This document shows positions 20,610-37,911 of a stretch of 59,068 nt of DNA, piece after piece (position 1 is the first letter of the stretch; each line of letters opens with the position of its first letter). The notes beneath the pieces are model-generated. The model worked only from the letters and a program-made list of their open reading frames with translations. It did no database searches and was not told where the DNA came from. The position numbers were made by a program, and so were the translations under genes. The stretch is from Caldisericia bacterium (lineage in GTDB: Bacteria > Caldisericota > Caldisericia > UBA6126). Location: the NCBI GenBank assembly GCA_023146045.1, contig JAGLCW010000017.1, forward strand, positions 1 through 59,068. The letters are read 5' to 3'.

Positions 20610-21953
20610 CTATCTAGAAGAATCTTTTTTTAAAAGTAGTTCTTTCTTTTTTACTTGCACATAAAGAGCTGCTTCAATTCTAGTTTTTTGAATTTCACAG
20701 CCTATTTCCCATGAAGCAGTTAAGCTTCCATTCATTCTGTTATTGTTTGCAGAGCATCCGCCACCACAAAGATATCTTGCCCAACAAGTTTTGCACTCTT
20801 TTTTTGAATTTAAATTTGTAGCAGATCTAAATTTTTCTACTATTGCAAGATTAGTTATTCCATCTTTTATTGATCCAATTTTAAACTCTGAATTTCCATC
20901 AAATTGGTGGCATGGATATAAATCACCATCTGGCGACACCGATAAGTACTCTACCCCAGCACCACAACTTGTCATTAGCTTTTCTTTGCATGCTCCAAAT
21001 TCTAGATTTACTTCAAAGTGGTAGAATGAAAATTCTTTGTCTTCTTTGTATGTATCAAGATACCATTTGGTGACATTTTGATATTCTTTTTTGATCATTG
21101 GAATATCTTGCTTAGTAAAACCAATTTTTGTGTTATCAGAAACAACTGGTTCAAATGATATTTTCTTGATTCCTTCAGAATAAAGGTGTTTTAAGTCTTC
21201 TAAAAAATTAATGTTCTTTTTAGTGTATGTTCCTCGAAGATAGTAACCCTCTCCCCATTCTTTAGAAACTGGCTTAATAGCATTCATAACAGTTTCATAA
21301 GTTCCACTGCCGTCAGCTAATATTCTGAATCTATTATGGTTTTCAGGCAATCCATCTTCACTTAATATTAGGCTTACCGTATGGTCGTGCAAGTAATCTG
21401 TCATTTCTTTTGTTAAGAGAGATGCGTTGGATGTTAAGGAAAACCGGAATTTCTTTCCTGTTTTTTCTTCTATAGTTTTAGAGTATTCAATAATATGTTT
21501 AACTACGTCCCATCCTAACAATGGTTCTCCACCAAAAAAATCACATTCTAAGTATTTTCTAGAACCGCTTGTTCTAACTAAAAATTGCAATGCATCCTCA
21601 CCCATTTTTTTAGTCATAATCTTTTTACTAGGAGCTTTACTGCCCTTTTCAAAACAATACGGACACCTAAAATTACAATCTCTTGTTATCATTAAGCAGA
21701 GAGATTTGCATACTCTTGAATCATCAAATGGTAGATTCTTTTCTTTAGCAAAATAACCTTGCTGGACTAGTTTTTTAATCTCATTATTTAATTCTTCGTC
21801 GAATTCATTGCTTTGGATTTTCTTTACATCTTGTTTGGAGCATTCAAATATTGAATTTGATGTTGCATCAAAAATATAGCCACTATCATTCCACTTAAAT
21901 GCATGGATTAAGCCGTTTTTATCTAACTCTTCTATATTGTTTACCAAATCCAT
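20610..21953 (-). CDS. scfB: SCIFF/ranthipeptide radical SAM-SPASM maturase (CteB-like)
   Basis: N-terminal RRE-like segment, CNFRCPYC, DFFGGEPL, SPASM cysteines CGAG.EY..PCHQF..CKTCWARYLCGGGC..N..C; directly downstream of a SCIFF peptide gene. Confidence 0.92.
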   Translation of the reverse strand: MDLVNNIEELDKNGLIHAFKWNDSGYIFDATSNSIFECSKQDVKKIQSNEFDEELNNEIKKLVQQGYFAKEKNLPFDDSRVCKSLCLMITRDCNFRCPYCFEKGSKAPSKKIMTKKMGEDALQFLVRTSGSRKYLECDFFGGEPLLGWDVVKHIIEYSKTIEEKTGKKFRFSLTSNASLLTKEMTDYLHDHTVSLILSEDGLPENHNRFRILADGSGTYETVMNAIKPVSKEWGEGYYLRGTYTKKNINFLEDLKHLYSEGIKKISFEPVVSDNTKIGFTKQDIPMIKKEYQNVTKWYLDTYKEDKEFSFYHFEVNLEFGACKEKLMTSCGAGVEYLSVSPDGDLYPCHQFDGNSEFKIGSIKDGITNLAIVEKFRSATNLNSKKECKTCWARYLCGGGCSANNNRMNGSLTASWEIGCEIQKTRIEAALYVQVKKKELLLKKDSSR

Positions 21954-24953: not shown

Positions 24954-25874
24954 TTAAATACTCTTATCGTTTATTGAAATCAATTGAATTTCACGTTCAA
25001 GAATAATACCAGTTTGATTGAATACTTCAGCTTCAACAGATTCTGCTAGCTGAATAATTTCTTCGAAAGTAGCATTTCTAGTATTTACAATAAAATTTCC
25101 ATGTCTCTCTGATATTTTTGCATCTCCATTTTTTTTACCTTTTAGCCCTAATTGCTCTATTAGAGCCCCTGTTGACTGGTTATTCGTATTTTTCCAAAAG
25201 CAACCAGCGTTCTTTGTGTATAAAGGTTGGGAAAATTTACGCTTTTGTAAGTATTTTTGATTTTTTTGCTTCTCTTCTTCGATATCACCTTTCTGCAATT
25301 CCAAAATTACAGAAGTAACAACATATTTGTTTTTTAGAAAAAGACTGCTTCTATAGGAGAAATACTCATCTATTTGCGAACCATTTATTTGTGTTATTGA
25401 CTTACCATCATAGTATTCAACCATAGAAAGCAAAGATGCAATGCATCCATAGACGGTTCCAGCATTCATTGCCGTGCACCCTCCAATAGTTCCAGGTATT
25501 CCTGTAAGAAAAGAATATCCAGTACAGTCATTTTTAAGCAATACTTTTATCAGCTTTGGCAATGACATACCAGCTTCAACATGAATTCTTTTTTCATCCA
25601 AAAATGAATACTCAGAAATTTCATTTGCTATTTTTATAACTACCCCATCAAATCCATCACTTGGCGCTATAACATTTGTTCCATTACCAATAACAGTACA
25701 TGGAATTGAATTCTCGTTACACAACACTATTGTTTTTGTAATATCTTGAGTACATTTTGGAAGCAATAGAACTCTAGCTGGACCACCAACTCCAATTGTT
25801 AAATGATTCTTAAGCGGTTCATTGTATAAAACGCTTCCAGTAAAATAGTTAAGATTAAATCCAATGTTCATCAA
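24954..25874 (-). CDS. murB: UDP-N-acetylenolpyruvoylglucosamine reductase
   Basis: GVGGPA, IGNGTNV, GIPGTIGG..MNAG, FSYRSS and HGNFIVN motifs. Confidence 0.95.
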   Translation of the reverse strand: MMNIGFNLNYFTGSVLYNEPLKNHLTIGVGGPARVLLLPKCTQDITKTIVLCNENSIPCTVIGNGTNVIAPSDGFDGVVIKIANEISEYSFLDEKRIHVEAGMSLPKLIKVLLKNDCTGYSFLTGIPGTIGGCTAMNAGTVYGCIASLLSMVEYYDGKSITQINGSQIDEYFSYRSSLFLKNKYVVTSVILELQKGDIEEEKQKNQKYLQKRKFSQPLYTKNAGCFWKNTNNQSTGALIEQLGLKGKKNGDAKISERHGNFIVNTRNATFEEIIQLAESVEAEVFNQTGIILEREIQLISINDKSI

Positions 25875-27228
25875 TCACTAATTCTTTGCATGCTTTCCAT
25901 ACATCGCCTGGACCCAAAGCTAAAATTATTGAATCTGAATCTAAGAATCTTTTAGCAATGCTTACTCCATGATCAAGAGACTTTGCTAAGTATTTATTAC
26001 CATCTGATAGATTAACACTGTCAAAAAACACTCTTGATTTTACTCCTTTTCGGTCGCTCTCTCCAGCAGAATAGACTGGTAAAATAATTAACTCATCTGC
26101 TTTATGTACACATTCGATATATTCTGCAAATAAGTTTTTCAGCCTAGAGTATCTGTGTGGTTGCAATAAAACTACTAGTTTTTTATTCGGAAAATACTTT
26201 TTGGCATCAGCTAAAACAGCCTTTATTACTTCTGGACTATCACCTTCATCATCTACAATTAATGCTTTGTGTTTACTTGGGTAAAACTGAAATCGTCTGT
26301 CAATTACAGGCAAATTAGTAAAATATTGTGATGGATTTTTTAATTGCCCTGCAAAACTTTCAAGCAAAGCAAAAGCAAATACTGCATCTAGTACATTTCT
26401 TAATGATGGCATTTTAATTTGAGAGTCAAATTCTGAATATTTTCCTTTAACATGAAATTTTGTGAATAAGTTTACACCATTAAACTCTGTTTTTAAATCT
26501 TGTATCTGGTAATCACAATTTTCAACGCCACAAGTAGTATATTTTATTCCATTAAAAAGCTCTTTGTAATTCTTTATCATTTCATATGGGATAACTACAG
26601 ATTCTTTTGTTTTCATCATTAGATTAACAAGGGAATTAATCAAATTTATTTTTTTATTTCCATAATTCGGTAAATGGTCATTCCCGAAATTTGTTACAAT
26701 CAACCCTTCGGGAGAAAACTGTAAATACTCTGGTTTCGACTCATCAGTTTCCAAAATAAAATATTCCCCGTCAGAAATTTTGAAGCACGGGTAATGTAGC
26801 ATATCTGCACCAATAAGCCATGAGGGTTTGCAGTTTGCAGTAGAAAACATGCTAGACGCGTACACCGTAGTTGTACTTTTCCCATAACTACCAGATATTG
26901 AGATAAGTTTTTTAGATTGAACAATTTTTCTGATTGCTGATATCCTATCAATGCAATCAATTCCTAGCTTTTTTGCTTTCATTAATTCTTGATTAGTTCC
27001 TAGAATGGCTGTTGAATAGACTACTTCGTCAATACTAGCATTGATGTTACTCTCAATTTGTGAACGATTAACAACTATTCCTTTTTGTTGTAATTCATTA
27101 AGCATCCTAAAAACAGCAATGTCTGATCCGGATACATTATAACCAAGTTCTCGATAATACATTGCCAAAGGCGTCATACCGACGCCACCAATTCCTATAA
27201 AATAAACATGTTTTTTGTTATTGCACAA
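25855..27228 (-). CDS. murC: MurC-family ligase with divergent substrate motifs
   Basis: FIGIGGVGM, VSGSD, GKSTTT, DES, DHL, RRF and QPHRYSR motifs; dcw position. The canonical DDYAHHP reads DDEGDSP. Confidence 0.85.
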   Translation of the reverse strand: MCNNKKHVYFIGIGGVGMTPLAMYYRELGYNVSGSDIAVFRMLNELQQKGIVVNRSQIESNINASIDEVVYSTAILGTNQELMKAKKLGIDCIDRISAIRKIVQSKKLISISGSYGKSTTTVYASSMFSTANCKPSWLIGADMLHYPCFKISDGEYFILETDESKPEYLQFSPEGLIVTNFGNDHLPNYGNKKINLINSLVNLMMKTKESVVIPYEMIKNYKELFNGIKYTTCGVENCDYQIQDLKTEFNGVNLFTKFHVKGKYSEFDSQIKMPSLRNVLDAVFAFALLESFAGQLKNPSQYFTNLPVIDRRFQFYPSKHKALIVDDEGDSPEVIKAVLADAKKYFPNKKLVVLLQPHRYSRLKNLFAEYIECVHKADELIILPVYSAGESDRKGVKSRVFFDSVNLSDGNKYLAKSLDHGVSIAKRFLDSDSIILALGPGDVWKACKELVIDEHWI

Positions 27229-28360
27229 TTCTTAGCTCTTCCTTTTTAGAATTTTTCTCTGGAAGTCTTGCTGCGATATTTAGTATTACACCAATCTCAA
27301 ATAGATTCAACACCAGTGCACTTCCCCCTTTACTAATAAAAGGCAGTGGGACACCGGTTGGTAAGAATACAGCCAAAGTAACTGCTACATGCAGAATTGC
27401 TTGGAATAGAATATGAAATGCAATGCCAGAAACAAGAACAGAATTAAAGTGATTTTTTGATAGTCTTGCGATTTGCAAAGCGTAGTAAAAAAGGAAAAAA
27501 TACAGAATTAACAAAAGAAATCCAAAAATTAACCCGAACTCTTCACAGATTATGGCAAAAATGTAATCGGTAGATGAAAATGCAAGATTAACAAATTTTT
27601 GAGAGCTTTTCATAAAACCTTGACCGAAAAACCCACCTCTTACTATTGCCCTTAATCCTTGCCTTAACTGATAAGCATCTGGGCTAATATAAACAGCCTG
27701 CACTATATCTAGCCGTCTATTTAATCTTGGTATTTTTAACATAGCAAAATAAGAAAGAATTGAAAAACCTGTTGTAGAAAGAACTCCCAACATTAAAGGT
27801 AATCCAGCAAGCATCATTGTTACTATTCCTATTGCGCCAAAAACCAAAGCTGCAGAAGCATTAGGCTCTATAGCGATTAAAAGACCTCCAAGGACAATCA
27901 TAAACAAAGGACCGATATGATCTGAAAGCTTCATTCTATTTTTAAATCTTGAATAATAAGAAGCAATGTAGAAAATTATTGCTACTTTAGCAATTTCTGA
28001 TGGTTGCATTGTAATTCCCCACAAGCCAGGGATCATTATCCATCTTTTTGCTTGTTCTCCTACTTCATTTGTAATGGAAGTATGGAACATAAGCACAGCT
28101 ACTAGCAAACAAATTGATATGAAGTAAAACATAAATGCATACTTTTTTAAGTATTTTGTATTCATTTTTCTAACAACTAATGCAACAACTGTACCAATTA
28201 ATAAAAAGAAACTTTGCTGATAAAGTCCATTGAATGGATTTCCTATGCCACCATCATTAAAATAATATATTGATGTAGTTGAAAATGTCATCAATAAACC
28301 AATAACGCAGAGTAAACATGTTAATAATACAATATTGGCGTGTAGTTTTTTAGGTGACAT
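27218..28360 (-). CDS. ftsW: SEDS family peptidoglycan glycosyltransferase FtsW
   Basis: Polytopic membrane protein with KRWI, QPSEIAK, TDYIFAIICEEFG and TGVPLPFIS motifs. Confidence 0.92.
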   Translation of the reverse strand: MSPKKLHANIVLLTCLLCVIGLLMTFSTTSIYYFNDGGIGNPFNGLYQQSFFLLIGTVVALVVRKMNTKYLKKYAFMFYFISICLLVAVLMFHTSITNEVGEQAKRWIMIPGLWGITMQPSEIAKVAIIFYIASYYSRFKNRMKLSDHIGPLFMIVLGGLLIAIEPNASAALVFGAIGIVTMMLAGLPLMLGVLSTTGFSILSYFAMLKIPRLNRRLDIVQAVYISPDAYQLRQGLRAIVRGGFFGQGFMKSSQKFVNLAFSSTDYIFAIICEEFGLIFGFLLLILYFFLFYYALQIARLSKNHFNSVLVSGIAFHILFQAILHVAVTLAVFLPTGVPLPFISKGGSALVLNLFEIGVILNIAARLPEKNSKKEELRIVQ

Positions 28361-28362
28361 AA

Positions 28363-29754
28363 TTAGTGGTTATAGGTTCGCCAAACCATTTTTTTAAAAA
28401 AATCTCCTCTTTCTTCAAAATTTGAAAATTCATCAAAACTTGCACACCCAGGTGACAACAAAACAAATTCATTTTCATCTGCTCTCTTTATTGCTTCAAA
28501 GAATCCACTTTTAAAAGTAGGTGTCATTTTATAGTTTTTAAATCCTTTTGCTTCAAGAGCTGATCTGATTTTTTTCCTAGTTTTTCCGTATATTACTACA
28601 CATTTTATAAAAGGATGTTCTTTAATCCATTTTGCTAAATCAGAAAAATCGCTTTCTTTATCGGATCCACCAAGCATTAAAATAAATGGCTCAGTCATGC
28701 AGTTTATTGCTACTATAGATGTAGAAGGCTTTGTAGATTTTGAATCGTTTATAAACCCAATACCACCATATCTTCCAACCCATTCAAATCGATGTGGTAA
28801 CCCATCGAACGATGCCAATGCATCTAAACATTTTCTAATTGAAAAGTCTTTTTTCAAAAACAAATATGCAGAAAGTATTGAAACAATAGCGTTTTGTCTA
28901 TTGTGAAGTCCTTTAATCTTCATTTCTCCAATTGGAATTCGTATAGACTTTCCATGATCACATATCACTGCTTCATCTGTTAACTGATCATACCAACAGC
29001 CTTTCTCGACAGGATTTTTCATAGAAAATAGATATTTTTTTGCCTTACTTACTTTAATATTTGTTAAACATGGCTGATCTCCATTTAGTATAGAGTAGTC
29101 GTTTTCTGTCTGATTTTCAAAAATTCGTAGCTTTGCAGAAAAATAATCGTCCATATTGTTATATCGATTTAAATGATCTTCTGAAAAATTCAAAAAAACA
29201 GCAACATGGGGTGAAAACTCTTGTATTGTTTCTAATTGGAATGAACTGACTTCAACTACTAGTGTTGCTTTTTTTGTTTTATGCACAATCTCAGATATTG
29301 GAATTCCAATATTCCCACAAACATAAACAGGCGTGATGTGATAACGTAATATTTGACCAGTTAGCTCCACAGTTGTACTTTTACCAGAAGTACCAGTGAC
29401 TGCAATAAATTTTGATTCAGTATATTGATATGCAAGTTCTATCTCACCAATAATTGGAACATGATTCTCTTCTGCTGCTCTTAAAACTGGAATCCTAGTT
29501 GGAACAGCTGGAGAAATAACAATTAGATCTTTGTCGACGTAGGTTCTCTCAGAATGTAGTCCCAATTCAAAATCTACTCCGATCGACTCAAGCCAAATGA
29601 TAGTTTTCGGATCAACATCAGCAGCTTTTTCTGTTGCAAATACTATTGCCCCTTTTGACAACAATAGTTCAACTGCAGCCTTACCGCTTTTCATTAATCC
29701 AAAAACAGTAATTTTTTTATCTTTAACAGAAAGTGTTTTTTTCATAGTATTCAT
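28363..29754 (-). CDS. murD: UDP-MurNAc-L-Ala:D-Glu ligase
   Basis: GNIGIP, EVSSFQLE, DHLNRY, LPHRFE, NDSK and LSPGCASFDEFSNFEERG motifs. Confidence 0.95.
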   Translation of the reverse strand: MNTMKKTLSVKDKKITVFGLMKSGKAAVELLLSKGAIVFATEKAADVDPKTIIWLESIGVDFELGLHSERTYVDKDLIVISPAVPTRIPVLRAAEENHVPIIGEIELAYQYTESKFIAVTGTSGKSTTVELTGQILRYHITPVYVCGNIGIPISEIVHKTKKATLVVEVSSFQLETIQEFSPHVAVFLNFSEDHLNRYNNMDDYFSAKLRIFENQTENDYSILNGDQPCLTNIKVSKAKKYLFSMKNPVEKGCWYDQLTDEAVICDHGKSIRIPIGEMKIKGLHNRQNAIVSILSAYLFLKKDFSIRKCLDALASFDGLPHRFEWVGRYGGIGFINDSKSTKPSTSIVAINCMTEPFILMLGGSDKESDFSDLAKWIKEHPFIKCVVIYGKTRKKIRSALEAKGFKNYKMTPTFKSGFFEAIKRADENEFVLLSPGCASFDEFSNFEERGDFFKKMVWRTYNH

Positions 29755-29766
29755 TTTACAAAAAAG

Positions 29767-30720
29767 CTACAAAAAATAAATAATAGATGCAAGAACACAG
29801 CAAACTATTTGAATTACAGTAAAACTTACCATGATTTGAGTTTCAGAATGACCAGAAAGTTCAAAATGATGATGAAGTGGAGACATTTTAAACACTCTCT
29901 TCCCTTTGCCATATTTTCTCTTTGTGTACTTAAACCATGCGACTTGTATTATCACTGACATAGCTTCCGTAACAAAAATGAAACAAAGAATAAGCAATAA
30001 TAGCTCTGTCTTTGAAATAACAGCAAGCGAAACTATTGCACCACCTATAGCAAAAGAACCAACATTTCCCATAAACACTTTTGCCGGGTGAGCATTGTAT
30101 AGAATAAATCCTAGCAATCCAGCAATCATAAAAACAGCAAAAATAGCAGGATAGATTTTTCCTTGTGAAAATAATACTACAGAATAAAAAACAAAAATCG
30201 GGATAGATACACTGCTTAGCAGACCGTCTACTCCATCTGTCAAATTTACAGAATTTACAACTGAAAGAATTATTAATAACTCAAGCACAATAATAAACAA
30301 AATATTATATCCAGCAAAGTTATTGTTCAAGCTGTAAATAATTATTGGTACTGAAAATACTAGCTGAAGTGATATGTCTTCTCTAGCCTTTAAACCATAT
30401 GGAGATTTCAATATTGTTTTCTTATAATCATCAAGATATCCAATGAGTCCGTATGCTATAAAAGCATAAAGTGGTAGCCAATATTCTATATTTGCTTGAG
30501 AATAAATTAAAAAAACTGTAAAAAAACAACTAACAACAAAAATAAATACTAAACCACCCATAGTCGGTGTTCCTTGTTTTTTCAAGTGGGCTTGTGGACC
30601 TTCTTCTCTTACAAACTGTCCTATTTGAAATTTTTTTAACATCGAAACAACTATTGGCATCAAACCTGTTGTCAGAAAAAAACAAACGATAAAAGAGATG
30701 CCATATTTCAATAAAGTCAT
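29767..30720 (-). CDS. mraY: Phospho-MurNAc-pentapeptide translocase
   Basis: KQGTPTMGG, GYLDDY, NLTDGVDGL and PLHHHFEL motifs; FMGD reads FMGN. Confidence 0.93.
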   Translation of the reverse strand: MTLLKYGISFIVCFFLTTGLMPIVVSMLKKFQIGQFVREEGPQAHLKKQGTPTMGGLVFIFVVSCFFTVFLIYSQANIEYWLPLYAFIAYGLIGYLDDYKKTILKSPYGLKAREDISLQLVFSVPIIIYSLNNNFAGYNILFIIVLELLIILSVVNSVNLTDGVDGLLSSVSIPIFVFYSVVLFSQGKIYPAIFAVFMIAGLLGFILYNAHPAKVFMGNVGSFAIGGAIVSLAVISKTELLLLILCFIFVTEAMSVIIQVAWFKYTKRKYGKGKRVFKMSPLHHHFELSGHSETQIMVSFTVIQIVCCVLASIIYFL

Positions 30721-30721
30721 T

Positions 30722-32110
30722 TTATTTCCTTTGCATTTTTTCTAGATCTGATACAAATTGAGACAAACCAATTCCATTAGAAGCCTTCACAAACACGGCG
30801 CAGTTGTTTTTAATCCAAGGATACACTATCTTTTTTAACATTTTAACATCATTTATAGCATGTAATTGACTTTTTCTTAGATATCCTTTTGAAAAATCTT
30901 CAAAATGATCACCAACATAGTATACTGCATCAGCATTTACAGAGTTAGCTATCATGCCAAGCTTTTTGTGCTCATCTTTTGAGATTACTCCTAATTCTAA
31001 CATATCACCAAGAATTAATACTTTTTTGTTAGAATTAAAACTTTTGAATGCTTCTAGGCACATTTTCATAGATAAAGGATTAGCGTTGTATGATTCATCA
31101 ATACATACTGAATCATTTTCTAGTTCTATTATTCCACCTCTTCCTTTTTCTGGTTTAAAGTTGAGTAAGTTTTTTCTAATTGTTTCATATTCAATATCTC
31201 CCACAAGTTCTTTTGTAAGAACAATGCTTGCTGTAGCATCTAAAACAAAATGATCTCCAAATGCTCTTATACAAAATTCACCAATGTCTTTCCCGTTATT
31301 GAATATTGAAAATGTTGTACCAAAACTGTCCGTCTTCACCCTCTTTATGTAAATTTCAAATCCTTCATCAAATCCATAAAGCTTAATGTTTGGATGAATT
31401 TCTAATAGATCTTTTTCAAGTCCACCCATATGTCCATTTGCAAATTTTGTGTATGGGTTTTCAATATTCAAAAAAATCTGTGACTTTGTTCTCATTATTT
31501 CTTCAAGAGAAGAAAAATATTCAGTATGAGAAGCTCCAATACTTGTAAGAATAGCGGCTTTCACATCAGAAAAACACTTAAGTGTTTTTTCAATTTCTCC
31601 CCTATAAGAAGCACTTAACTCTGAAATAATCCATCTGGAATCGTCTGGAATATTTGATAATGCTATTGGTATACCAATTGGTGTATTATAATTTTTAAAA
31701 GTTGCATAAGAGTTTGGTAATAAACAATTTAGTATTTGTTTTGTAGTTGTTTTACCTGCTGATCCAGATATCAAGATATTGTTTCTTCCAGCGCTCATTT
31801 CAGCTGCCAAATCAATTAAAGCATCATGCGTATCTTTAACTTTGATAAATATCGTTTTTGAGTTTTCGAAAACAGTATCAACTTTTTTTTGAACAATGAC
31901 TACTCTTGGAAAATTTTTTAAAACATCTTTAATAAAATCATGACCATCTACTCTGTCCCCTTTTAAACAAACAAAAACATCTCCACTTAAAACATTTCTT
32001 GAGTCCACAGAAATATGAAGATTAAACTGAACATTATTTTCAAGTGCTGATTTAAATACTAGTTTCCCATTGCAAAATTTAATAATTTTTTCTACTGTCG
32101 TTTTAAACAC
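30722..32110 (-). CDS. murF: UDP-MurNAc-tripeptide:D-Ala-D-Ala ligase
   Basis: DSR..DGHDF, GSAGKTTTK, ESYNANPLSM and LGDMLELG motifs. Confidence 0.92.
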   Translation of the reverse strand: MFKTTVEKIIKFCNGKLVFKSALENNVQFNLHISVDSRNVLSGDVFVCLKGDRVDGHDFIKDVLKNFPRVVIVQKKVDTVFENSKTIFIKVKDTHDALIDLAAEMSAGRNNILISGSAGKTTTKQILNCLLPNSYATFKNYNTPIGIPIALSNIPDDSRWIISELSASYRGEIEKTLKCFSDVKAAILTSIGASHTEYFSSLEEIMRTKSQIFLNIENPYTKFANGHMGGLEKDLLEIHPNIKLYGFDEGFEIYIKRVKTDSFGTTFSIFNNGKDIGEFCIRAFGDHFVLDATASIVLTKELVGDIEYETIRKNLLNFKPEKGRGGIIELENDSVCIDESYNANPLSMKMCLEAFKSFNSNKKVLILGDMLELGVISKDEHKKLGMIANSVNADAVYYVGDHFEDFSKGYLRKSQLHAINDVKMLKKIVYPWIKNNCAVFVKASNGIGLSQFVSDLEKMQRK

Positions 32111-33582
32111 AATTCTTCTTTCTTCTTGACAATACTTGTTGTTTCGACAATGTCATCGAAAACTGTAATTTTCCCATTTTGGATGAACTCTTTTTGGTTT
32201 CCTCGTCCGAGAATTGCAACAACTGAGTTTGATGGAGCAAATTCAATAGCATTTGATATGGCTTCTCGTCTATTTCTAATAATTAATACTTTCTTCTTGT
32301 CTTCCATATTTAAATTTGCCAAAAAATGAGAAAAAGCAATTTCAGGATCTTCATTCTCTGGATCGTCAAGCGTCAGAACAATTTTATCGAAAAATGTATT
32401 AAAAAAGACTCCCAGCTGAGCCCTATACTCTTTTTTTCCCCCTCCAACATTACCGAATACTAGTATTTTTTCAGAACATTTTGTTTTAAGTAGTTCTTTT
32501 TTGATGTTCTCTAGTGCAATGATTGTATTGGCTTTGTCAATTACTATTTGAAATGGGAGTTTAGTTTCGATAATATGCCATCTACCAGGTATTGCTTGAG
32601 TTTTTTCTAAAACACTAGCTGTTTGTTTGGAAGAATATCCAAAATGGATACCTATCAATAATGCTACAGTAAAATTGTATGCCTGAAATTCCCCAATCAA
32701 CGGGATGTGGATTTTTTGGAAAAAGAAATCATTTTTCACACTGCAAACATTTTTCCACATAGAAAGTTGATAATCGGATCTTTTTTTTGTACTGACTGTG
32801 AAAAATCTAGGATCTTCTGGTAAATTCATGGTAGACGACAATTCTGAATCAATATTAATATACGCAGTACCACTTGTTTTTAACATTTTTAGAAGTTTTT
32901 CTTTTGCTTGAACATAATCTTCAACTGAGTTGTAGTATTCAACATGATGACAGTGTGCCAACGAAATAATAGATACAGCATCAAACTTTATTCCAAACAA
33001 TCTATTCTGGGATAGTCCATGAGAACTTGCCTCTAAAACAGCACACTTGCATCCATTTTTACATGCCATAGATAGAAGATAGTTCAGCTCATACGCATCA
33101 GGAGTAGTAACTGGACCTTTCATTGTATACTTAAAGATTTTCCCGCCAAACAAAATTCCTGCCGTGCCTATTACAGCAGTCTTAAGATTTAAGTTATTTA
33201 GCATTTGTGCAATAATATGTGCGGTTGATGTTTTTCCTGAAGTTCCAGTAATTGCTACCATTCTCATTTTTTTTGCGGGATACTTGAAAAATGCTTGTGA
33301 AAGAATGCTCCAACTTTCTGAAGAATCCTCCACTTCACAATAGGCAATTCCACTAGGTATTTTTTCTTTATTAAACCCATTCTGAACTATCAGCCCAATT
33401 GCACCATTTTTTAAAGCAACACCGATATAGTTGTGAGAATCTACTTCTGTGCCTTTTGTTGCAACAAAAATGTCTCCATTTTTTATTTTTCTTGAATCAC
33501 GTTCAATATTTTTTATTTCTTTATGAAATGGAATTTTATATGAAGTACAATTAATTATCGAAGGTAAATCAGTTAGATACAT
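32092..33582 (-). CDS. murE: MurE-family ligase with a divergent amino-acid pocket
   Basis: Likely start MYLTDL (33582); DSRK..DSH.Y, ITGTSGKTST, TTPDA, EASSHGL.QNR and PGRW motifs; DNPR reads DDPE and DYAHT reads DKANT. Confidence 0.85.
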   Translation of the reverse strand: MYLTDLPSIINCTSYKIPFHKEIKNIERDSRKIKNGDIFVATKGTEVDSHNYIGVALKNGAIGLIVQNGFNKEKIPSGIAYCEVEDSSESWSILSQAFFKYPAKKMRMVAITGTSGKTSTAHIIAQMLNNLNLKTAVIGTAGILFGGKIFKYTMKGPVTTPDAYELNYLLSMACKNGCKCAVLEASSHGLSQNRLFGIKFDAVSIISLAHCHHVEYYNSVEDYVQAKEKLLKMLKTSGTAYINIDSELSSTMNLPEDPRFFTVSTKKRSDYQLSMWKNVCSVKNDFFFQKIHIPLIGEFQAYNFTVALLIGIHFGYSSKQTASVLEKTQAIPGRWHIIETKLPFQIVIDKANTIIALENIKKELLKTKCSEKILVFGNVGGGKKEYRAQLGVFFNTFFDKIVLTLDDPENEDPEIAFSHFLANLNMEDKKKVLIIRNRREAISNAIEFAPSNSVVAILGRGNQKEFIQNGKITVFDDIVETTSIVKKKEELCLKRQ

Positions 33583-35293
33583 TGTTTTGCCCAATTCGAA
33601 TAATCCACTCAGAAATATCTTTAAAGGCAGGAGCAGCAACCGTTGAGCCATATGCGTCCCCGTATGGATGAGGCTCATCAATTGATACTAAAATCAAATA
33701 CTCTGGTTCATCAGCTGGAAAAAATCCAATAAACGAGCAGATAATTTTATCATTCTGATACTGACCATTTGTCACTTTTTTTGCCGTACCGGTTTTGCCT
33801 CCAACTGGCATTCCTTTAATTTTTGCATTAGAACAGCCATATTTGTTTTGAACAACATTCTGAAGTATTGAAACCATTTCTTTTGACGTTTCTGTAGAAA
33901 TTATTTTCTTTAAAATTTCTGGTTTGAAAGAGTTCACAATTTTCCCATTAGAATCTCTTATTTCTTTAATCAAAATCGGTTTCATTAAGTCTCCACCATT
34001 AATGATTGCCGCATATGCACTAATTATTTGAATTGGCGTAACGGATATTGAAGTTCCGAATGAAACGTTGGCGGCTTCTAAATCTGAATAATAATCTCTT
34101 GAAGGTAAGATACCTGATTCTTGGCCTAGTAAATTTAATGGGTACAAAGAACCAAAATTGAACTTTTCTACGAAATCAAGTAATCTGATTCCCATTTTCA
34201 TACCAACTTGAGCTAAAGCAACATTGCATGAATTTCTCATATAGTCGGTCATTTTTTGAATTCCGTGTGGGAACATGCATTGTATTTGCTTATTCTCTAC
34301 CCAAATTTGCCCTTCACATTCAAATTCATCCTCTGGACTTACTACTCCAAGTTCTAATGCTGAAGCAGCTGTAATAGATTTAAAAATTGAACCAGGTTCA
34401 TAATTCATTGATACAGCTTTATTCGAAAAATCTGAATCTAATATGAATTCACCACCATTATTTAAATCAAAAGATGGATTCGATGCCATAGCTAGTATTT
34501 CACCAGTTTTAGGTTCCATTATTATAACAGTCCCGCCTTTTGCATTCCATCTTTCAACATGCATCTCAAGTATTGACTCAACTTTTGATTGTAATTTTTC
34601 ATCAATTGCAAGAACTATTGTATCTCCCTGAATAGGAGGTTGAATAATTTCTTCTGACCCAGGTACTTTATTGCCGCTAAAAGACCTGTTGTATACTTTT
34701 CTTCCAGGAATACCAGCCAGAATATTATTGTATGAATACTCAAGTCCACTAAGCCCAGTTTTATCATCTCCTACCCAACCAATAAGTGATGCTGCTAGAT
34801 ATCGTTTTGGATATTCTCTTTTTTGATCAATTACAAAGTTGTAGTTACATATGGAGGAATTTTTCACAAGTTTTTTTATTCTTTCCATTTGAGATTCGTT
34901 CATTTTTTTAAAAATCTCAGCGTCTTTTCTTTCTGTATTAGAAATTGCTTTTTTTAAATCACTTAAGGCAATCTGTTCATCAAAATTAACTATCGGTGCT
35001 ATTTGGTTTATAAATAACTCTGGATTGTCCATTTCTTGTGGATTGCAGTGCAAAGTGTAAGCCTCTCTACTTTGAGCTAATATTTTACCGTTTCTATCCA
35101 ATATTTGCCCGCGCATAGGTAGAATAATGTCTGGCTGACAATATCTATACTCTTTTAACTGCTGAGCATTAACATCAAATAATCCTCTCCAAAATAAAGA
35201 TACAGAAACAAACAAAACAAGGAGAAACATAACAAATCCAGTAAGCTGTATACTTCTAATTCTAGATTTATATTTTCTATTTTTGGATTTCAT
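33569..35293 (-). CDS. ftsI: Class B penicillin-binding protein (FtsI/SpoVD-like)
   Basis: RGQILDRNG, REYP, GLEYSY, SxxK (EPGSIFK), SCN and KTGT motifs. Confidence 0.92.
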   Translation of the reverse strand: MKSKNRKYKSRIRSIQLTGFVMFLLVLFVSVSLFWRGLFDVNAQQLKEYRYCQPDIILPMRGQILDRNGKILAQSREAYTLHCNPQEMDNPELFINQIAPIVNFDEQIALSDLKKAISNTERKDAEIFKKMNESQMERIKKLVKNSSICNYNFVIDQKREYPKRYLAASLIGWVGDDKTGLSGLEYSYNNILAGIPGRKVYNRSFSGNKVPGSEEIIQPPIQGDTIVLAIDEKLQSKVESILEMHVERWNAKGGTVIIMEPKTGEILAMASNPSFDLNNGGEFILDSDFSNKAVSMNYEPGSIFKSITAASALELGVVSPEDEFECEGQIWVENKQIQCMFPHGIQKMTDYMRNSCNVALAQVGMKMGIRLLDFVEKFNFGSLYPLNLLGQESGILPSRDYYSDLEAANVSFGTSISVTPIQIISAYAAIINGGDLMKPILIKEIRDSNGKIVNSFKPEILKKIISTETSKEMVSILQNVVQNKYGCSNAKIKGMPVGGKTGTAKKVTNGQYQNDKIICSFIGFFPADEPEYLILVSIDEPHPYGDAYGSTVAAPAFKDISEWIIRIGQNNVSN

Positions 35294-35570
35294 AGTAAAA
35301 AACCTCTACCTGTTGATTTTGTGTCAGTGCAACCATTCGTAAAGTCTCTCTATTTATTGCTTCCGAATAAAGCCTATTTGCATCTGTAAGATATTCATAT
35401 TCTTTCTGAAGTTCTCCAATAGTATTTTTTAGTTCTTGGTTGGACAACTGAATTTTTTCAATTTCTTTATCCATCACCCATACTCGCACCTGAGGAATGC
35501 CAACTCCAATAAGTAAACATGCGAGAATTATTACCAAACTACTTAGAGCTTTTTGCATTTCTGGTTCCAA
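35277..35570 (-). CDS. Probable cell division protein FtsL
   Basis: One TM helix plus coiled coil, between rsmH and the class B PBP; assignment by position. Confidence 0.6.
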   Translation of the reverse strand: MEPEMQKALSSLVIILACLLIGVGIPQVRVWVMDKEIEKIQLSNQELKNTIGELQKEYEYLTDANRLYSEAINRETLRMVALTQNQQVEVFYYEIQK

Positions 35571-36438
35571 TTCGCAACTTTGCGCTTCTTGCTGCAGGAT
35601 TTACAGCAATTTCCTCATCCAATGGTCTTATAACTTTTTTATTAACTCTAGTGAAATCAACTGATTCTCTAATGAAATGTTTAATTATTCTGTCCTCAAT
35701 TGAATGGTATGATATAAAAGCAATTGTTCCGTTTTCGGCAACTAAGTCTGGTAAATTCTTTAACAAGTTTTGTAACTGCACCATTTCTTGGTTGACTTCA
35801 ATTCGAAGTGCTTGAAATGTTTGAGTTGCTGGATGAATTTTTCCCCTTTTGTATCCTTTGGCAGAAGCAATAATAGAAGCAAGCTGACTACACGTTTCAA
35901 TAGGTTTTCTATTTCTCTCTCTTACAATTTTATACGCTATTCTTCTAGAAGCCCTTTCTTCTCCAAACTCGTAAATAATATCAGCGAGTTTTTTTTCTGG
36001 ATATTTATTTACTACATCATGTGCTCTTAAGTCAACATCACTCCCATCAAATCTCATGTCTAGTGGATCATCAGTTTGAAAGCTAAACCCTCTACCTCTA
36101 GTTTTTAGCTGATACATTGAAATGCCCAGGTCTGCAATAAGAATATTTGGCTTTTCCAGCCTTGCATGTTCAATTTGTTTATTTGCATTTGCATAAGTGT
36201 CATGAAATAGTCTAAAGTTGTTTGCAATTTTTGATAATCTTCTCTTTGCGATTTCTAGTACACATTCATCTCTATCAAATCCATAATAATAACCCTCTTT
36301 GATAAGAGATAAAAAAATACTAGCATGGCCACCTTCGCCACAAGTGCAATCCAAAATAACTGAATTGTCTTTTACTTGCAAAAGTTCAACGATATTTAAT
36401 CCAAATACTGGTATATGTTGTATTTCTTCATTCATCAT
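35539..36438 (-). CDS. rsmH: 16S rRNA m4C1402 methyltransferase
   Basis: HIPV, DCT.GEGGH, DLGIS, RGFSF..PLDMR, HPATQTFQALRI and NPAARSAKLR motifs; start moved to MMNEE because the longer ORF start lies inside rnpB. Confidence 0.95.
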   Translation of the reverse strand: MMNEEIQHIPVFGLNIVELLQVKDNSVILDCTCGEGGHASIFLSLIKEGYYYGFDRDECVLEIAKRRLSKIANNFRLFHDTYANANKQIEHARLEKPNILIADLGISMYQLKTRGRGFSFQTDDPLDMRFDGSDVDLRAHDVVNKYPEKKLADIIYEFGEERASRRIAYKIVRERNRKPIETCSQLASIIASAKGYKRGKIHPATQTFQALRIEVNQEMVQLQNLLKNLPDLVAENGTIAFISYHSIEDRIIKHFIRESVDFTRVNKKVIRPLDEEIAVNPAARSAKLRIGTRNAKSSK

Positions 36439-36444
36439 AATAAT

Positions 36445-36767
36445 CCCTCGAGTAATCTTTAAGCCAGGTTCTGTGTTCAATTTCTTGAACGGCAATCATC
36501 TATCTTAGCGACTCACCTACAAGCTTGGCGAGCAACCTACAAACGCTTGTCATTGGTCTTGCTCCAGGTGGGGTTTACAAATCCAATCGGTCACCCGATT
36601 GCTGGTGAGCTCTTACCTCGCCATTTCACCTTTACCTGTTTCCAGGCTGTATATTTTCTGTTGCACTTTCCTTAGGGTCACCCCCACTAACCGTTAATTA
36701 GCACCTTGCTCTGTGGAGCCCGGACTTTCCTCTGATATCAATCAGCAATTGCCTTTCATACTCGAGG
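36445..36767 (-). ncRNA. rnpB: Bacterial RNase P RNA (type A-like)
   Basis: Minus strand contains GAGGAAAGUCCGGGCUCC, AGUGCAACAGAA, GUAAACCCCACCUGGAGCAAG, AGAUAGAUGAU and ACAGAACCUGGCUUA; P1 helix CCUCGAGUA / UACUCGAGG closes the ends. Confidence 0.96.
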
Positions 36768-36768
36768 T

Positions 36769-36787
36769 AATATGAGTATATCATATT
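36769..36787 (-). promoter_or_regulatory. Extended -10 promoter (TGnTATACT) for rnpB inside an AATATGA-N5-TCATATT palindrome
   Basis: TGATATACT on the minus strand at 36783-36775, 7 nt before the rnpB 5' end. Confidence 0.55.
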
Positions 36788-36876
36788 CATCATTTTTTTC
36801 AGGAGATTTTGCTAAATGCATTTAACATAAAGTTTTTTTTCTGTATTATACAGGTATAATTTTGTTAGGAGGAAGC

Positions 36877-37911
36877 ATGTTAAATCGATCGGAATATATT
36901 GATTATATTGAAAATATTTTAGTATTACTTTGTAATATACCAAGCCCTTCGGGATTTACCGAATCCATTTCTAACGAAGTAACTCTTCAATTAAAAGAAC
37001 TTGAACTCATTCCAAGCAAAACTCTCAAAAACTCTGTTTTGTGCGACACAAAAACAAACGGAGAAACGCTAACATTAGCAGCTCATCTAGACACACTCGG
37101 TGCAATAGTAAGATCTATTAAATCAAACGGTAGGATTAGATTAAGCAAGATAGGCGGCTGGTCAGAAAATACTGTTTCAGGTGAAAATTGCCTTATTCAC
37201 ACATACAATGGTGACGTATTCACTGGAACGGTTCAGTATACATCCCCAGCAGTACATGTTTACAAGTCTGTTGGCGACAAAAAGTTGGAAAATGAAATTG
37301 AAGTTGTCATAGACAGACTTGTAAAAAACAAAGAAGATGTGGCGATGCTTGGAATTGAAAATGGCAACTTTATCTCGTTTGATCCAAGAACTACAATAAC
37401 TAAAAGTGGTTTCATAAAAAGCAGACATTTAGATGATAAAGCTGGAGCTGCAATCCTTTTAGCTTTAGCAAAATGGATCCAAAAGAATAAAACAAAAGTT
37501 AATAAAAATGTACACCTTTTGTTCACTACATATGAAGAAGTTGGTCACGGTGGGGCATCTGGGGTATCAGCAAGTACCAAAGAAATGATTTCTGTAGATA
37601 TGGGAGCAGTTGGAGATGATCTTCTTGGGACAGAGGAAAAAGTCTCTATATGCGCAAAAGACAGCGGTGGACCATATGATTATTCCTTGACAAAAAGTCT
37701 TGTCAATATTGCAAAAAATGGGAATCTTGACTATGTTGTAGATGTTTTTCCATATTACGGATCAGATGTTGAAGTTACATTGAGAGCAGGATACGACATT
37801 AAGCATGGTTTAATTGGACCAGGAGTATTCGCATCTCATGGCTATGAAAGAACTCATATTGATGGAATCTTAAATACGTTGCTACTTTTAATTCACTACA
37901 TAACGCAGTAA
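36877..37911 (+). CDS. M42 family metallopeptidase
   Basis: PSPSG, AAHLDTLG, SRHLDDK, YEEVGHG and HGYERTH motifs; ATG 36877 follows AGGAGG. Confidence 0.92.
   Translation: MLNRSEYIDYIENILVLLCNIPSPSGFTESISNEVTLQLKELELIPSKTLKNSVLCDTKTNGETLTLAAHLDTLGAIVRSIKSNGRIRLSKIGGWSENTVSGENCLIHTYNGDVFTGTVQYTSPAVHVYKSVGDKKLENEIEVVIDRLVKNKEDVAMLGIENGNFISFDPRTTITKSGFIKSRHLDDKAGAAILLALAKWIQKNKTKVNKNVHLLFTTYEEVGHGGASGVSASTKEMISVDMGAVGDDLLGTEEKVSICAKDSGGPYDYSLTKSLVNIAKNGNLDYVVDVFPYYGSDVEVTLRAGYDIKHGLIGPGVFASHGYERTHIDGILNTLLLLIHYITQ

Follow-up and report, generated by a model that had tools for sequence, protein, structure and literature searches.

Does a cell wall operon whose enzymes have lost their customary substrate motifs still make the customary stem peptide? 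The question is raised by the division and cell wall (dcw) cluster of a Caldisericia bacterium, carried on a stretch of 59,068 nucleotides (as a whole, the window), in which MurC, MurE, MurD, MraY, and FtsW all read differently at sites normally taken as diagnostic. A sequence-only reading of the window had quoted these motifs, all of which, including the three in MurE, are present as stated, and had proposed a stem unlike L-Ala-D-Glu-meso-diaminopimelate (mDAP) or its Lys counterpart. By sequence comparison, the genes belong to known families, and MurC, MurE, and MraY each depart from characterized members at the residue level. The operon is an intact single-copy set, for which we tentatively propose, with somewhat less than even confidence, the stem L-Ser(Ala)-D-Glu-L-Lys(Orn)-D-Ala-D-Ala.

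An intact and conserved cluster

The host genome (G000; 1.95 Mb, 34% G+C, 94% complete) is a member of the Caldisericia and was compared with 60 relatives: 12 of family f1 and 2 of family f2, which together with G000 make up the 15 genomes of the order under study, and 46 of families f3 (n = 13), f4 (n = 9), f5 (n = 13), and f6 (n = 11). Loci were taken from only part of these relatives, giving alignments of 42 rows each for MurC and MurE, 41 for FtsW, 35 for MurD, 32 for MurF, and 30 for MraY; residue counts for the order refer to the genomes covering each site (13 to 15).

The cluster consists of intact genes in the dcw order mraW-ftsL-pbp-murE-murF-mraY-murD-ftsW-murC-murB, with murG elsewhere (Table 1). 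The eight open reading frames (ORFs) from pbp to murB share one strand, are unbroken, and overlap or lie at most 12 bases apart, and the penicillin-binding protein (PBP) has its three active-site motifs, as had been reported. Canonical murC and murE paralogues, which the earlier reading had suggested seeking, were not found: a BLASTP comparison of the eight proteins with 3163 ORFs of G000 yielded no canonical Mur paralogue, genome searches gave one match each, and no second murC, murD, murE, or murF was seen in this 94%-complete genome. A contig scan with a single MurE query returned nothing, and one with the MurC alignment returned 16 clade loci and 7 weak others. Among the other genes it had named, murI, alr, and ddl, like murG, pass NCBIfam cut-offs elsewhere in G000, and dapF scores just below its cut-off. 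The genes murA and murJ (both on contig C137), rodA, and mreBCD-PBP2 can be recognized as well, partly by eye, together with a pair of class A PBPs. Most likely the pathway runs as usual through MurA to MurF, MraY, MurG, and MurJ to FtsW-PBP. Profiles of the pseudomurein ligases fail (NF053645, pMurC, 42 versus 560 bits; NF053648, pMurE, 29 versus 600 bits).

Table 1. Genes of the cluster and altered sites in their products (residue numbers are those of the window proteins unless a species is named)
Feature	Position	Strand	Remarks
rsmH (mraW), first cluster gene, start codon uncertain	35539..36495	-	TIGR00006 286 bits, over cut-off
ftsL/divIC-like small membrane protein	35277..35570	-	PF04977 E 1.7e-5, under cut-off
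Class B PBP (FtsI/SpoVD-like)	33569..35293	-	SxxK, SxN, KTG all intact
murE, 496 aa	32092..33582	-	TIGR01085 326 bits vs cut-off 257, MurE-like fold
murF	30722..32110	-	TIGR01143 270 bits, below cut-off 289
mraY	29767..30720	-	TIGR00445 255 bits vs cut-off 192
murD	28363..29754	-	Over family cut-off
ftsW	27218..28360	-	Below NCBIfam cut-off
murC	25855..27228	-	TIGR01082 290.5 vs 335.1 bits: below cut-off, still best family
murB	24954..25874	-	TIGR00179, over cut-off
MurE 349-353, DKANT: Tyr to K350, His to N352	32524-32538	-	33/33 clade, 0/87 outside
MurE G382 for Arg	32437..32439	-	Gly 33/33 clade; Arg 85/87 outside
MurE 406-409, DDPE for DNPR: Asp kept, Asn to D407, Arg to E409	32356-32367	-	33/33 clade
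MurE 459-463, GRGNQ: Lys to R460, His to N462, Glu (E. coli E468) to Q463	32194-32208	-	33/33 clade
MurC 326-332, DDEGDSP for DDYAHHP	26233-26253	-	H. influenzae Y346, H348, H349 = E328, D330, S331 (alignment to 1gqq)
MurC P440 for H. influenzae A459	25909..25911	-	Alignment
MurC D281 for adenine-site Asn	26386-26388	-	Asn 99% conserved outside; 14/14 in order
MurC Y115 for P-loop His	26884-26886	-	His 99% conserved outside; 15/15 in order
MraY 216-219, FMGN: Mg-binding Asp (A. aeolicus D265, B. subtilis D231) = N219	30064..30075	-	15/15 order
MraY D115 for conserved Lys (B. subtilis K116, mapped by spacing)	30376..30378	-	
MurD 337-342, DSKSTK	28729-28746	-	
FtsW 343-347, SKGGS	27320-27334	-	

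That the altered motifs reflect decay, drift in a single genome, or an assembly error is extremely improbable. Within genus g1, MurB, MurC, MurE, and MurF are only 43 to 49% identical to the G000 proteins, compared with 76 to 80% for MurD, and MurC, MurF, and FtsW fall below their NCBIfam cut-offs, as decay might produce; yet the changes are fixed across two families and the catalytic residues are invariant. Specifically, K117, E160, H185, R312, D327, R359, and R362 of MurC and K117, E184, H213, K227, R334, and D349 of MurE are kept in all Caldisericia covering those sites, and the ATP and metal sites are intact. The ratio of nonsynonymous to synonymous changes (dN/dS; Nei-Gojobori, six pairs in the order, with deep pairs near saturation and the values of G002 inflated by its frameshifted murF and murB) is 0.11 to 0.17 for murC, 0.10 to 0.33 for murE, and 0.10 to 0.27 for mraY, similar to the 0.05 to 0.20, 0.09 to 0.20, and 0.08 to 0.22 of other families. 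A contig from sequencing run X1, possibly the source of the assembly, shows no difference from the window, and neither does a 158-base piece across 32301-32458 from run X2 of a different study, which independently covers MurE residues 382 and 406 to 409. Since dN/dS is far below 1 and the substitutions are fixed across the order, neither error nor decay accounts for them, and the rewriting of MurC and MraY has persisted under purifying selection. The possibility, raised at the outset, that the substitutions would be missing from close relatives is likewise contradicted by their fixation in 13 to 15 genomes.

MurE and the residue at position 3

The pattern of substitutions in MurE supports an altered rather than a decayed specificity, as the sequence-only reading had argued. 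Counted from the ATG of the 496-residue protein, 82 positions reach 90% conservation or more among 87 outside homologues, a set rich in near-identical Fusobacteriota, and nine of them (350, 352, 379, 382, 407, 409, 460, 462, and 463) are fixed otherwise in all 33 clade proteins. All nine lie in the C-terminal amino-acid-binding domain (p = 0.0009; this test and the one on the DAP contacts below are post hoc Fisher tests). Position 382 corresponds to R389 of Escherichia coli, which binds the α-carboxylate; E409 occurs in all but one of 14 genomes of the order, the exception being G008 with Gly. In other respects the protein has the features of its family, exceeding the TIGR01085 cut-off and keeping the fold, the P-loop, the carbamoyl-Lys position, and the Mg ligands; it stays below the PRK00139 equivalog cut-offs. 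The murE frame is open up to position 33681, and the 496-residue protein P0159 is identical to the product given here. The proteins are named "diaminopimelate ligase," an automatic name that may be wrong.

In mDAP ligases, the distal end of the substrate is gripped on two sides: Asn and Arg of the DNPR motif bind its carboxylate, whereas the Asp and E468 bind its amine (PMC3829189). The window protein shares the fold and catalytic core of the DNPR enzymes of E. coli and Verrucomicrobium spinosum, but three of the four published DAP contacts are replaced (p = 0.004): D407, E409, and Q463 stand in place of the Asn, the Arg, and the E468 equivalent. The exchange of Asn and Arg for Asp and Glu makes DAP less likely and a cationic side chain more so. 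The sequence carries the signature of an L-Lys-type MurE, with the distal Arg gone, the first Asp kept, and an acidic pocket formed by D406, D407, and E409. The L-Lys-specific MurE of Staphylococcus aureus (DNPA) is alike in all three respects, and such an acidic pocket favors L-Lys and admits L-Orn (PMC3829189). MurE of the window thus likely adds L-Lys or L-Orn rather than mDAP. In the proposed mechanism, D406, D407, and E409 would bind the cationic side chain while repelling any distal carboxylate, E409 might stand in for the Glu lost at 463, and K350 and R460 could replace the lost Arg 382 in binding the α-carboxylate. We consider it very probable that residue 3 is not mDAP, and probable that it is Lys or Orn. 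The earlier idea of a stem unlike both known types therefore probably holds for mDAP and overreaches for Lys, as the pocket best fits a residue of the Lys/Orn type.

The best sequence match in the Protein Data Bank (PDB) is MurE of Thermotoga maritima (4bub; E 4.4e-59), which shares the lost Arg 382, Asp 407, and Arg 460. It retains the distal Arg, His 352, and Glu 463, whereas the window protein has Glu, Asn, and Gln at these sites together with Lys 350. The T. maritima enzyme adds L-Lys and D-Lys in vivo and uses mDAP in vitro (10.1101/2022.01.05.475093). This in vitro activity, the positive charge added by K350 and R460, and the DAP/lysine operon of G000 would suit a canonical L-Ala-D-Glu-mDAP stem made by very divergent enzymes, in which R460 or K350 binds the distal carboxylate. 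We nevertheless judge such a stem improbable, given that the mDAP activity of T. maritima MurE is ascribed to the Arg of its DDPR motif (10.1101/2022.01.05.475093), where Glu stands here, and that genome G009, with the same pocket, has no DAP genes that we could find.

Gene content supports the view that residue 3 is not DAP, though not cleanly. The gene dapF was found in G000, 10 of 12 other f1 genomes, and 13 of 13 f5 genomes, and in none of those of f2 (0/2), f3 (0/13), f4 (0/9), and f6 (0/11); dapB exceeds its cut-off in G000, 10 other f1 genomes, both f2 genomes, and one f5 genome, and ddh was found in none of the 61. In G000, the dap genes form a single run ending in lysA, the arrangement expected for lysine supply; lysA passes its cut-off there and was found in all but one of the order's 15 genomes. 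In G009, which is 97% complete and has the same pockets, dapF, dapB, ddh, and lysA were not found. The distal Arg goes together with dapF in f5 (10/10 and 13/13, respectively), and f4 and f6 lack both (dapF 0/20). K350 and N352 are common to f4 and f6, whereas f3 and f5 still have an aromatic residue and His at these two sites as well as the distal Arg, and a quick MurE tree groups f1, f2, f4, and f6 with support of 97. MurB residue 225, which we take to be the catalytic Ser position, is Cys in f1, f2, f4, and f6 and Ser in f3 and f5; as this split mirrors the MurE types, shared ancestry alone can yield such covariation.

Some further observations concern the same genes. The f5 genomes, with dapF in all 13 and dapB in only one, may take up DAP and epimerize it for the wall. 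Just before dapF in G000 lies a 161-residue ORF (G000:C30:7836-8321), which presumably resembles the C-terminal part of Asd; it is the only Asd-like stretch there, so the gene may be split. MurE residue 406 is Gly in six of eight f6 proteins.

MurC and the residue at position 1

The incoming amino acid is contacted in MurC by H376, R377, R380, Y346, and H348 (PMC3060825). The first three have their equivalents in H358, R359, and R362 and are kept, whereas Y346 and H348 are replaced, and E328, D330, and S331 occur in every genome of the order with coverage there (13 of 13). The Haemophilus influenzae enzyme (1p3d) agrees with the window protein in gene position, fold, the equivalents of H376, R377, and R380, and the ATP and metal ligands; it differs in that its Y346, H348, H349, and A459 (the last presumably also a pocket residue) have become Glu, Asp, Ser, and Pro, the P-loop His Tyr, and the adenine-site Asn Asp. 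An AlphaFold model, used like the others for fold comparison only, has a predicted local distance difference test (pLDDT) value of 90.5 and a template modeling (TM) score of 0.87 to H. influenzae MurC; the fold is thus kept. Along with its operon position and its standing as the sole candidate in the genome, this marks the protein as MurC, even though score and contact set deviate from the equivalog.

A profile search of 1.84 billion representatives, of which only the best matches were inspected, was headed by six clade proteins with the rewritten pocket, followed by 144 outside proteins with Tyr and His 99% conserved; two of these 144 have the His/Asp form seen elsewhere in Caldisericia. With residues 300 to 400 as the query, 76 matches were obtained, nine of the clade and 67 canonical. 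Within the class, D330 and P440 are common to most of f3 to f5, and f4 and f6 show further versions of the pocket; the class has thus remodeled this site repeatedly, and it may hold several wall chemistries. Among loci L126-L138 of f4 and f6, two f4 proteins have Cys328, Leu330, Tyr358, and Leu440, and residue 358 is Val, Phe, or Met in f6. A horizontal origin of murC was considered: a 54-row quick tree split the order from the other Caldisericia, but a 28-row subset rejoined them with support of 97, and no transfer is claimed.

MurC possibly adds L-Ser instead of, or beside, L-Ala. R359 and R362 would still hold the carboxylate, and E328 and D330 would accept a polar side chain. That residue 1 is mostly not Ala we hold to be a possibility just short of an even call, and roughly half of that weight falls, on weak grounds, to L-Ser. 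The choice of Ser is the weakest step of our proposal. Ser is preferred over a larger cation because the sites downstream show few order-specific changes and because Ala, Ser, and Gly are the only residues reported at position 1 (PMC4803751).

It is rather unlikely, though a good deal less so than the alternatives that follow, that MurC still prefers L-Ala in its altered pocket. H358, R359, and R362 are kept, the other fixed changes (115, 118, and 281) sit in the ATP site, the pocket variants recur across the class, and the UDP-MurNAc-Ala contacts of MurD show no order-specific change except Gly73-to-Ala in genus g1. On the other hand, Tyr and His are nearly invariant in the 144 outside proteins and present in 67 of 67 outside matches of the region search, and two carboxylates replacing both would hardly be neutral for a pocket that receives a methyl group.

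The same two carboxylates, gained with the loss of two bulky rings, would fit a cationic residue 1 such as diaminobutyrate, Orn, or Lys, and MurE might, also or instead, link a D-diamino acid; MraY would then have adapted to the altered precursor. K350 aligns, in our own register, with the Lys of the D-amino-acid motif of MurD, T. maritima MurE uses D-Lys, the broad amino-acid racemase TIGR00035 is present in G000, and the MraY pair described below and the MurC change fall on the same branch. We consider this improbable. Few order-specific changes are seen in MurD or in the N-terminal portions of MurE and MurF, all of which must bind residue 1, the second racemase could not be found in either f2 genome, and a cation would lie outside the residues reported for position 1 (PMC4803751). 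An unprecedented wall peptide, with a residue 1 that is cationic or otherwise outside Ala, Ser, and Gly, a diamino acid other than DAP at position 3, and an MraY that functions without the Asp and Lys supposed to be essential, is equally improbable; were it real, the class would constitute a natural series of re-specified Mur ligases.

Walls resembling Group B occur in Eubacterium limosum and Acetobacterium, where a bridge runs from the α-carboxyl of D-Glu through a diamino acid. A wall of this kind, with L-Ser at position 1, L-Orn or L-Lys at position 3, and D-Glu cross-linked through a D-diamino acid, would agree with the residues predicted here, and a spare racemase is at hand; FemAB was found in 0 of 61 genomes and MurT in 2 of 61 (both f5, none in the order), so the bridge routes that depend on them are not evident. 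We regard it as very improbable: no bridge-adding enzyme was identified, though no profile for one was used.

Returning to the stem with Ser or Ala at position 1 and Lys or Orn at position 3, several points weigh against it. The Glu required for Lys addition by S. aureus MurE (E460, together with N407) is Q463 in 33 of 33 clade proteins, where D407 and the extra E409 are found, and the E460A variant almost loses Lys addition (PMC3829189). With dapF and dapB in G000 and 10 of the 12 other f1 genomes, mDAP is available. Gene content sorts the MurE types imperfectly, since f3 retains the distal Arg in the absence of dapF and dapB from 13 genomes and dapB is found in only 1 of 13 f5 genomes, and the families are also kin. 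Enrichment in the MurC pocket is weak (p = 0.07 with published contacts), and D330 and P440 are almost class-wide. The His equivalent to residue 330 is described as a triphosphate contact in Mpl (PMC3060825), so that the MurC change may concern catalysis. Finally, canonical MurC takes Ser and Gly in vitro (PMC4803751).

MraY, later steps, and neighboring features

MraY retains D97, D98, N159, D162, D165, and the triple-His motif and passes TIGR00445; its Asp-Asp pair and triple-His motif are like those of Aquifex aeolicus (4j72) and Bacillus subtilis MraY, while the equivalents of D231 and K116 are N219 and D115. In B. subtilis, D231 and K116 are catalytically important, and Mg2+ is bound at D265, the A. 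aeolicus equivalent of D231 (PMC5039524). All 32 clade proteins have Asn219, as does 1 of the 88 outside (this one among P0303-P0390), whereas none of 15 other Caldisericia has it. Residue 115, whose loss had been missed when N219 alone was noted, is D, H, or S throughout the 15 members of the order, K or R throughout the 15 other Caldisericia, and Lys in 88 of 88 outside proteins. The coincidence of the two losses suggests compensation: MraY would remain active, D115 possibly supplying the carboxylate lost at 219. Both residues bear on catalysis and not on peptide choice.

Within our alignments, only E328, S331, Y115, and D281 of MurC, E409 of MurE, and the MraY pair are specific to the order, and the changes accrued stepwise across the class rather than in a single event. 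The coordinated rewriting proposed at first thus applies to this subset and not to K350/N352, shared with f4 and f6, or D330/P440, shared with f3 to f5. Similarly, the motifs of MurC, MurE, and MraY are indeed near-invariant elsewhere, but those of MurD and FtsW are not. Streptococcus agalactiae MurD has the same Ala-to-Ser change, and the D-Glu contacts T321, K348, S415, and F422 (PMC9780078) correspond to T341, K366, S439, and F446, all four kept in the order in a protein scoring over its cut-off, so that a specificity shift in MurD is not supported. FtsW residue 344 varies within the order (K, Q, R, I, V, or T) and does not support a functional change either; D265, which we take to be catalytic, is kept in 41 of 41 rows. 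MurF is ordinary save for general divergence, aligning with solved MurF structures and having three order-specific residues, and the best match of Ddl is a D-Ala-D-Ala ligase, with scores below every Van cut-off shown. Changes in MurD, MurF, FtsW, the PBP, and Ddl thus give no sign of altered chemistry, and the D-Glu and D-Ala-D-Ala machinery is canonical; D-Glu at position 2 and D-Ala-D-Ala at positions 4 and 5 are very probable. No LD-transpeptidase was found in G000. MurT has been reported in Caldisericum exile (PMC11915815), which, as MurT is confined here to two f5 genomes, probably belongs to f5 and lies outside the order; its MurC pocket is probably of the intermediate form.

Stem-peptide chemistry is documented in few phyla, and the literature searched by names and wall terms, with supplements, subscription papers, and the species description outside its scope, contained no wall analysis of Caldisericota and no mention of these motifs, nor did the parts consulted of PMC11915815, PMC7203096, and 10.1101/2021.05.31.446380. 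In nature, these enzymes vary at precisely those residues believed to govern Mur specificity and MraY catalysis; as such, they bear on the structural rules for selecting residues 1 and 3 and on whether the MraY Asp is indispensable, and re-specified ligases could supply unusual wall precursors for research.

Around the cluster, a promoter scan of the upstream region was uninformative, with 4 sites versus 1.7 expected, and the interval 36496-36861 upstream of mraW contains no ORF of at least 80 residues and hence no mraZ. The neighbors, a radical SAM/SPASM protein (20610-21953) and an M42 aminopeptidase (36862-37911), have no apparent link to it. The murG gene lies at G000:C223:5664-6767 and is also out of the cluster in ten f1 loci examined (L041-L052), while in f2, f4, and f5 loci a gene of the size of murG separates ftsW from murC. 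In family f3 and genus g6, the cluster is without murF; f3 and G016 (L174:2814-6342) have a MurF-like protein in which a hydrophobic N terminus replaces the usual first domain, adjoining a hydrolase-like gene and ddl, and this protein is possibly a membrane-anchored MurF.

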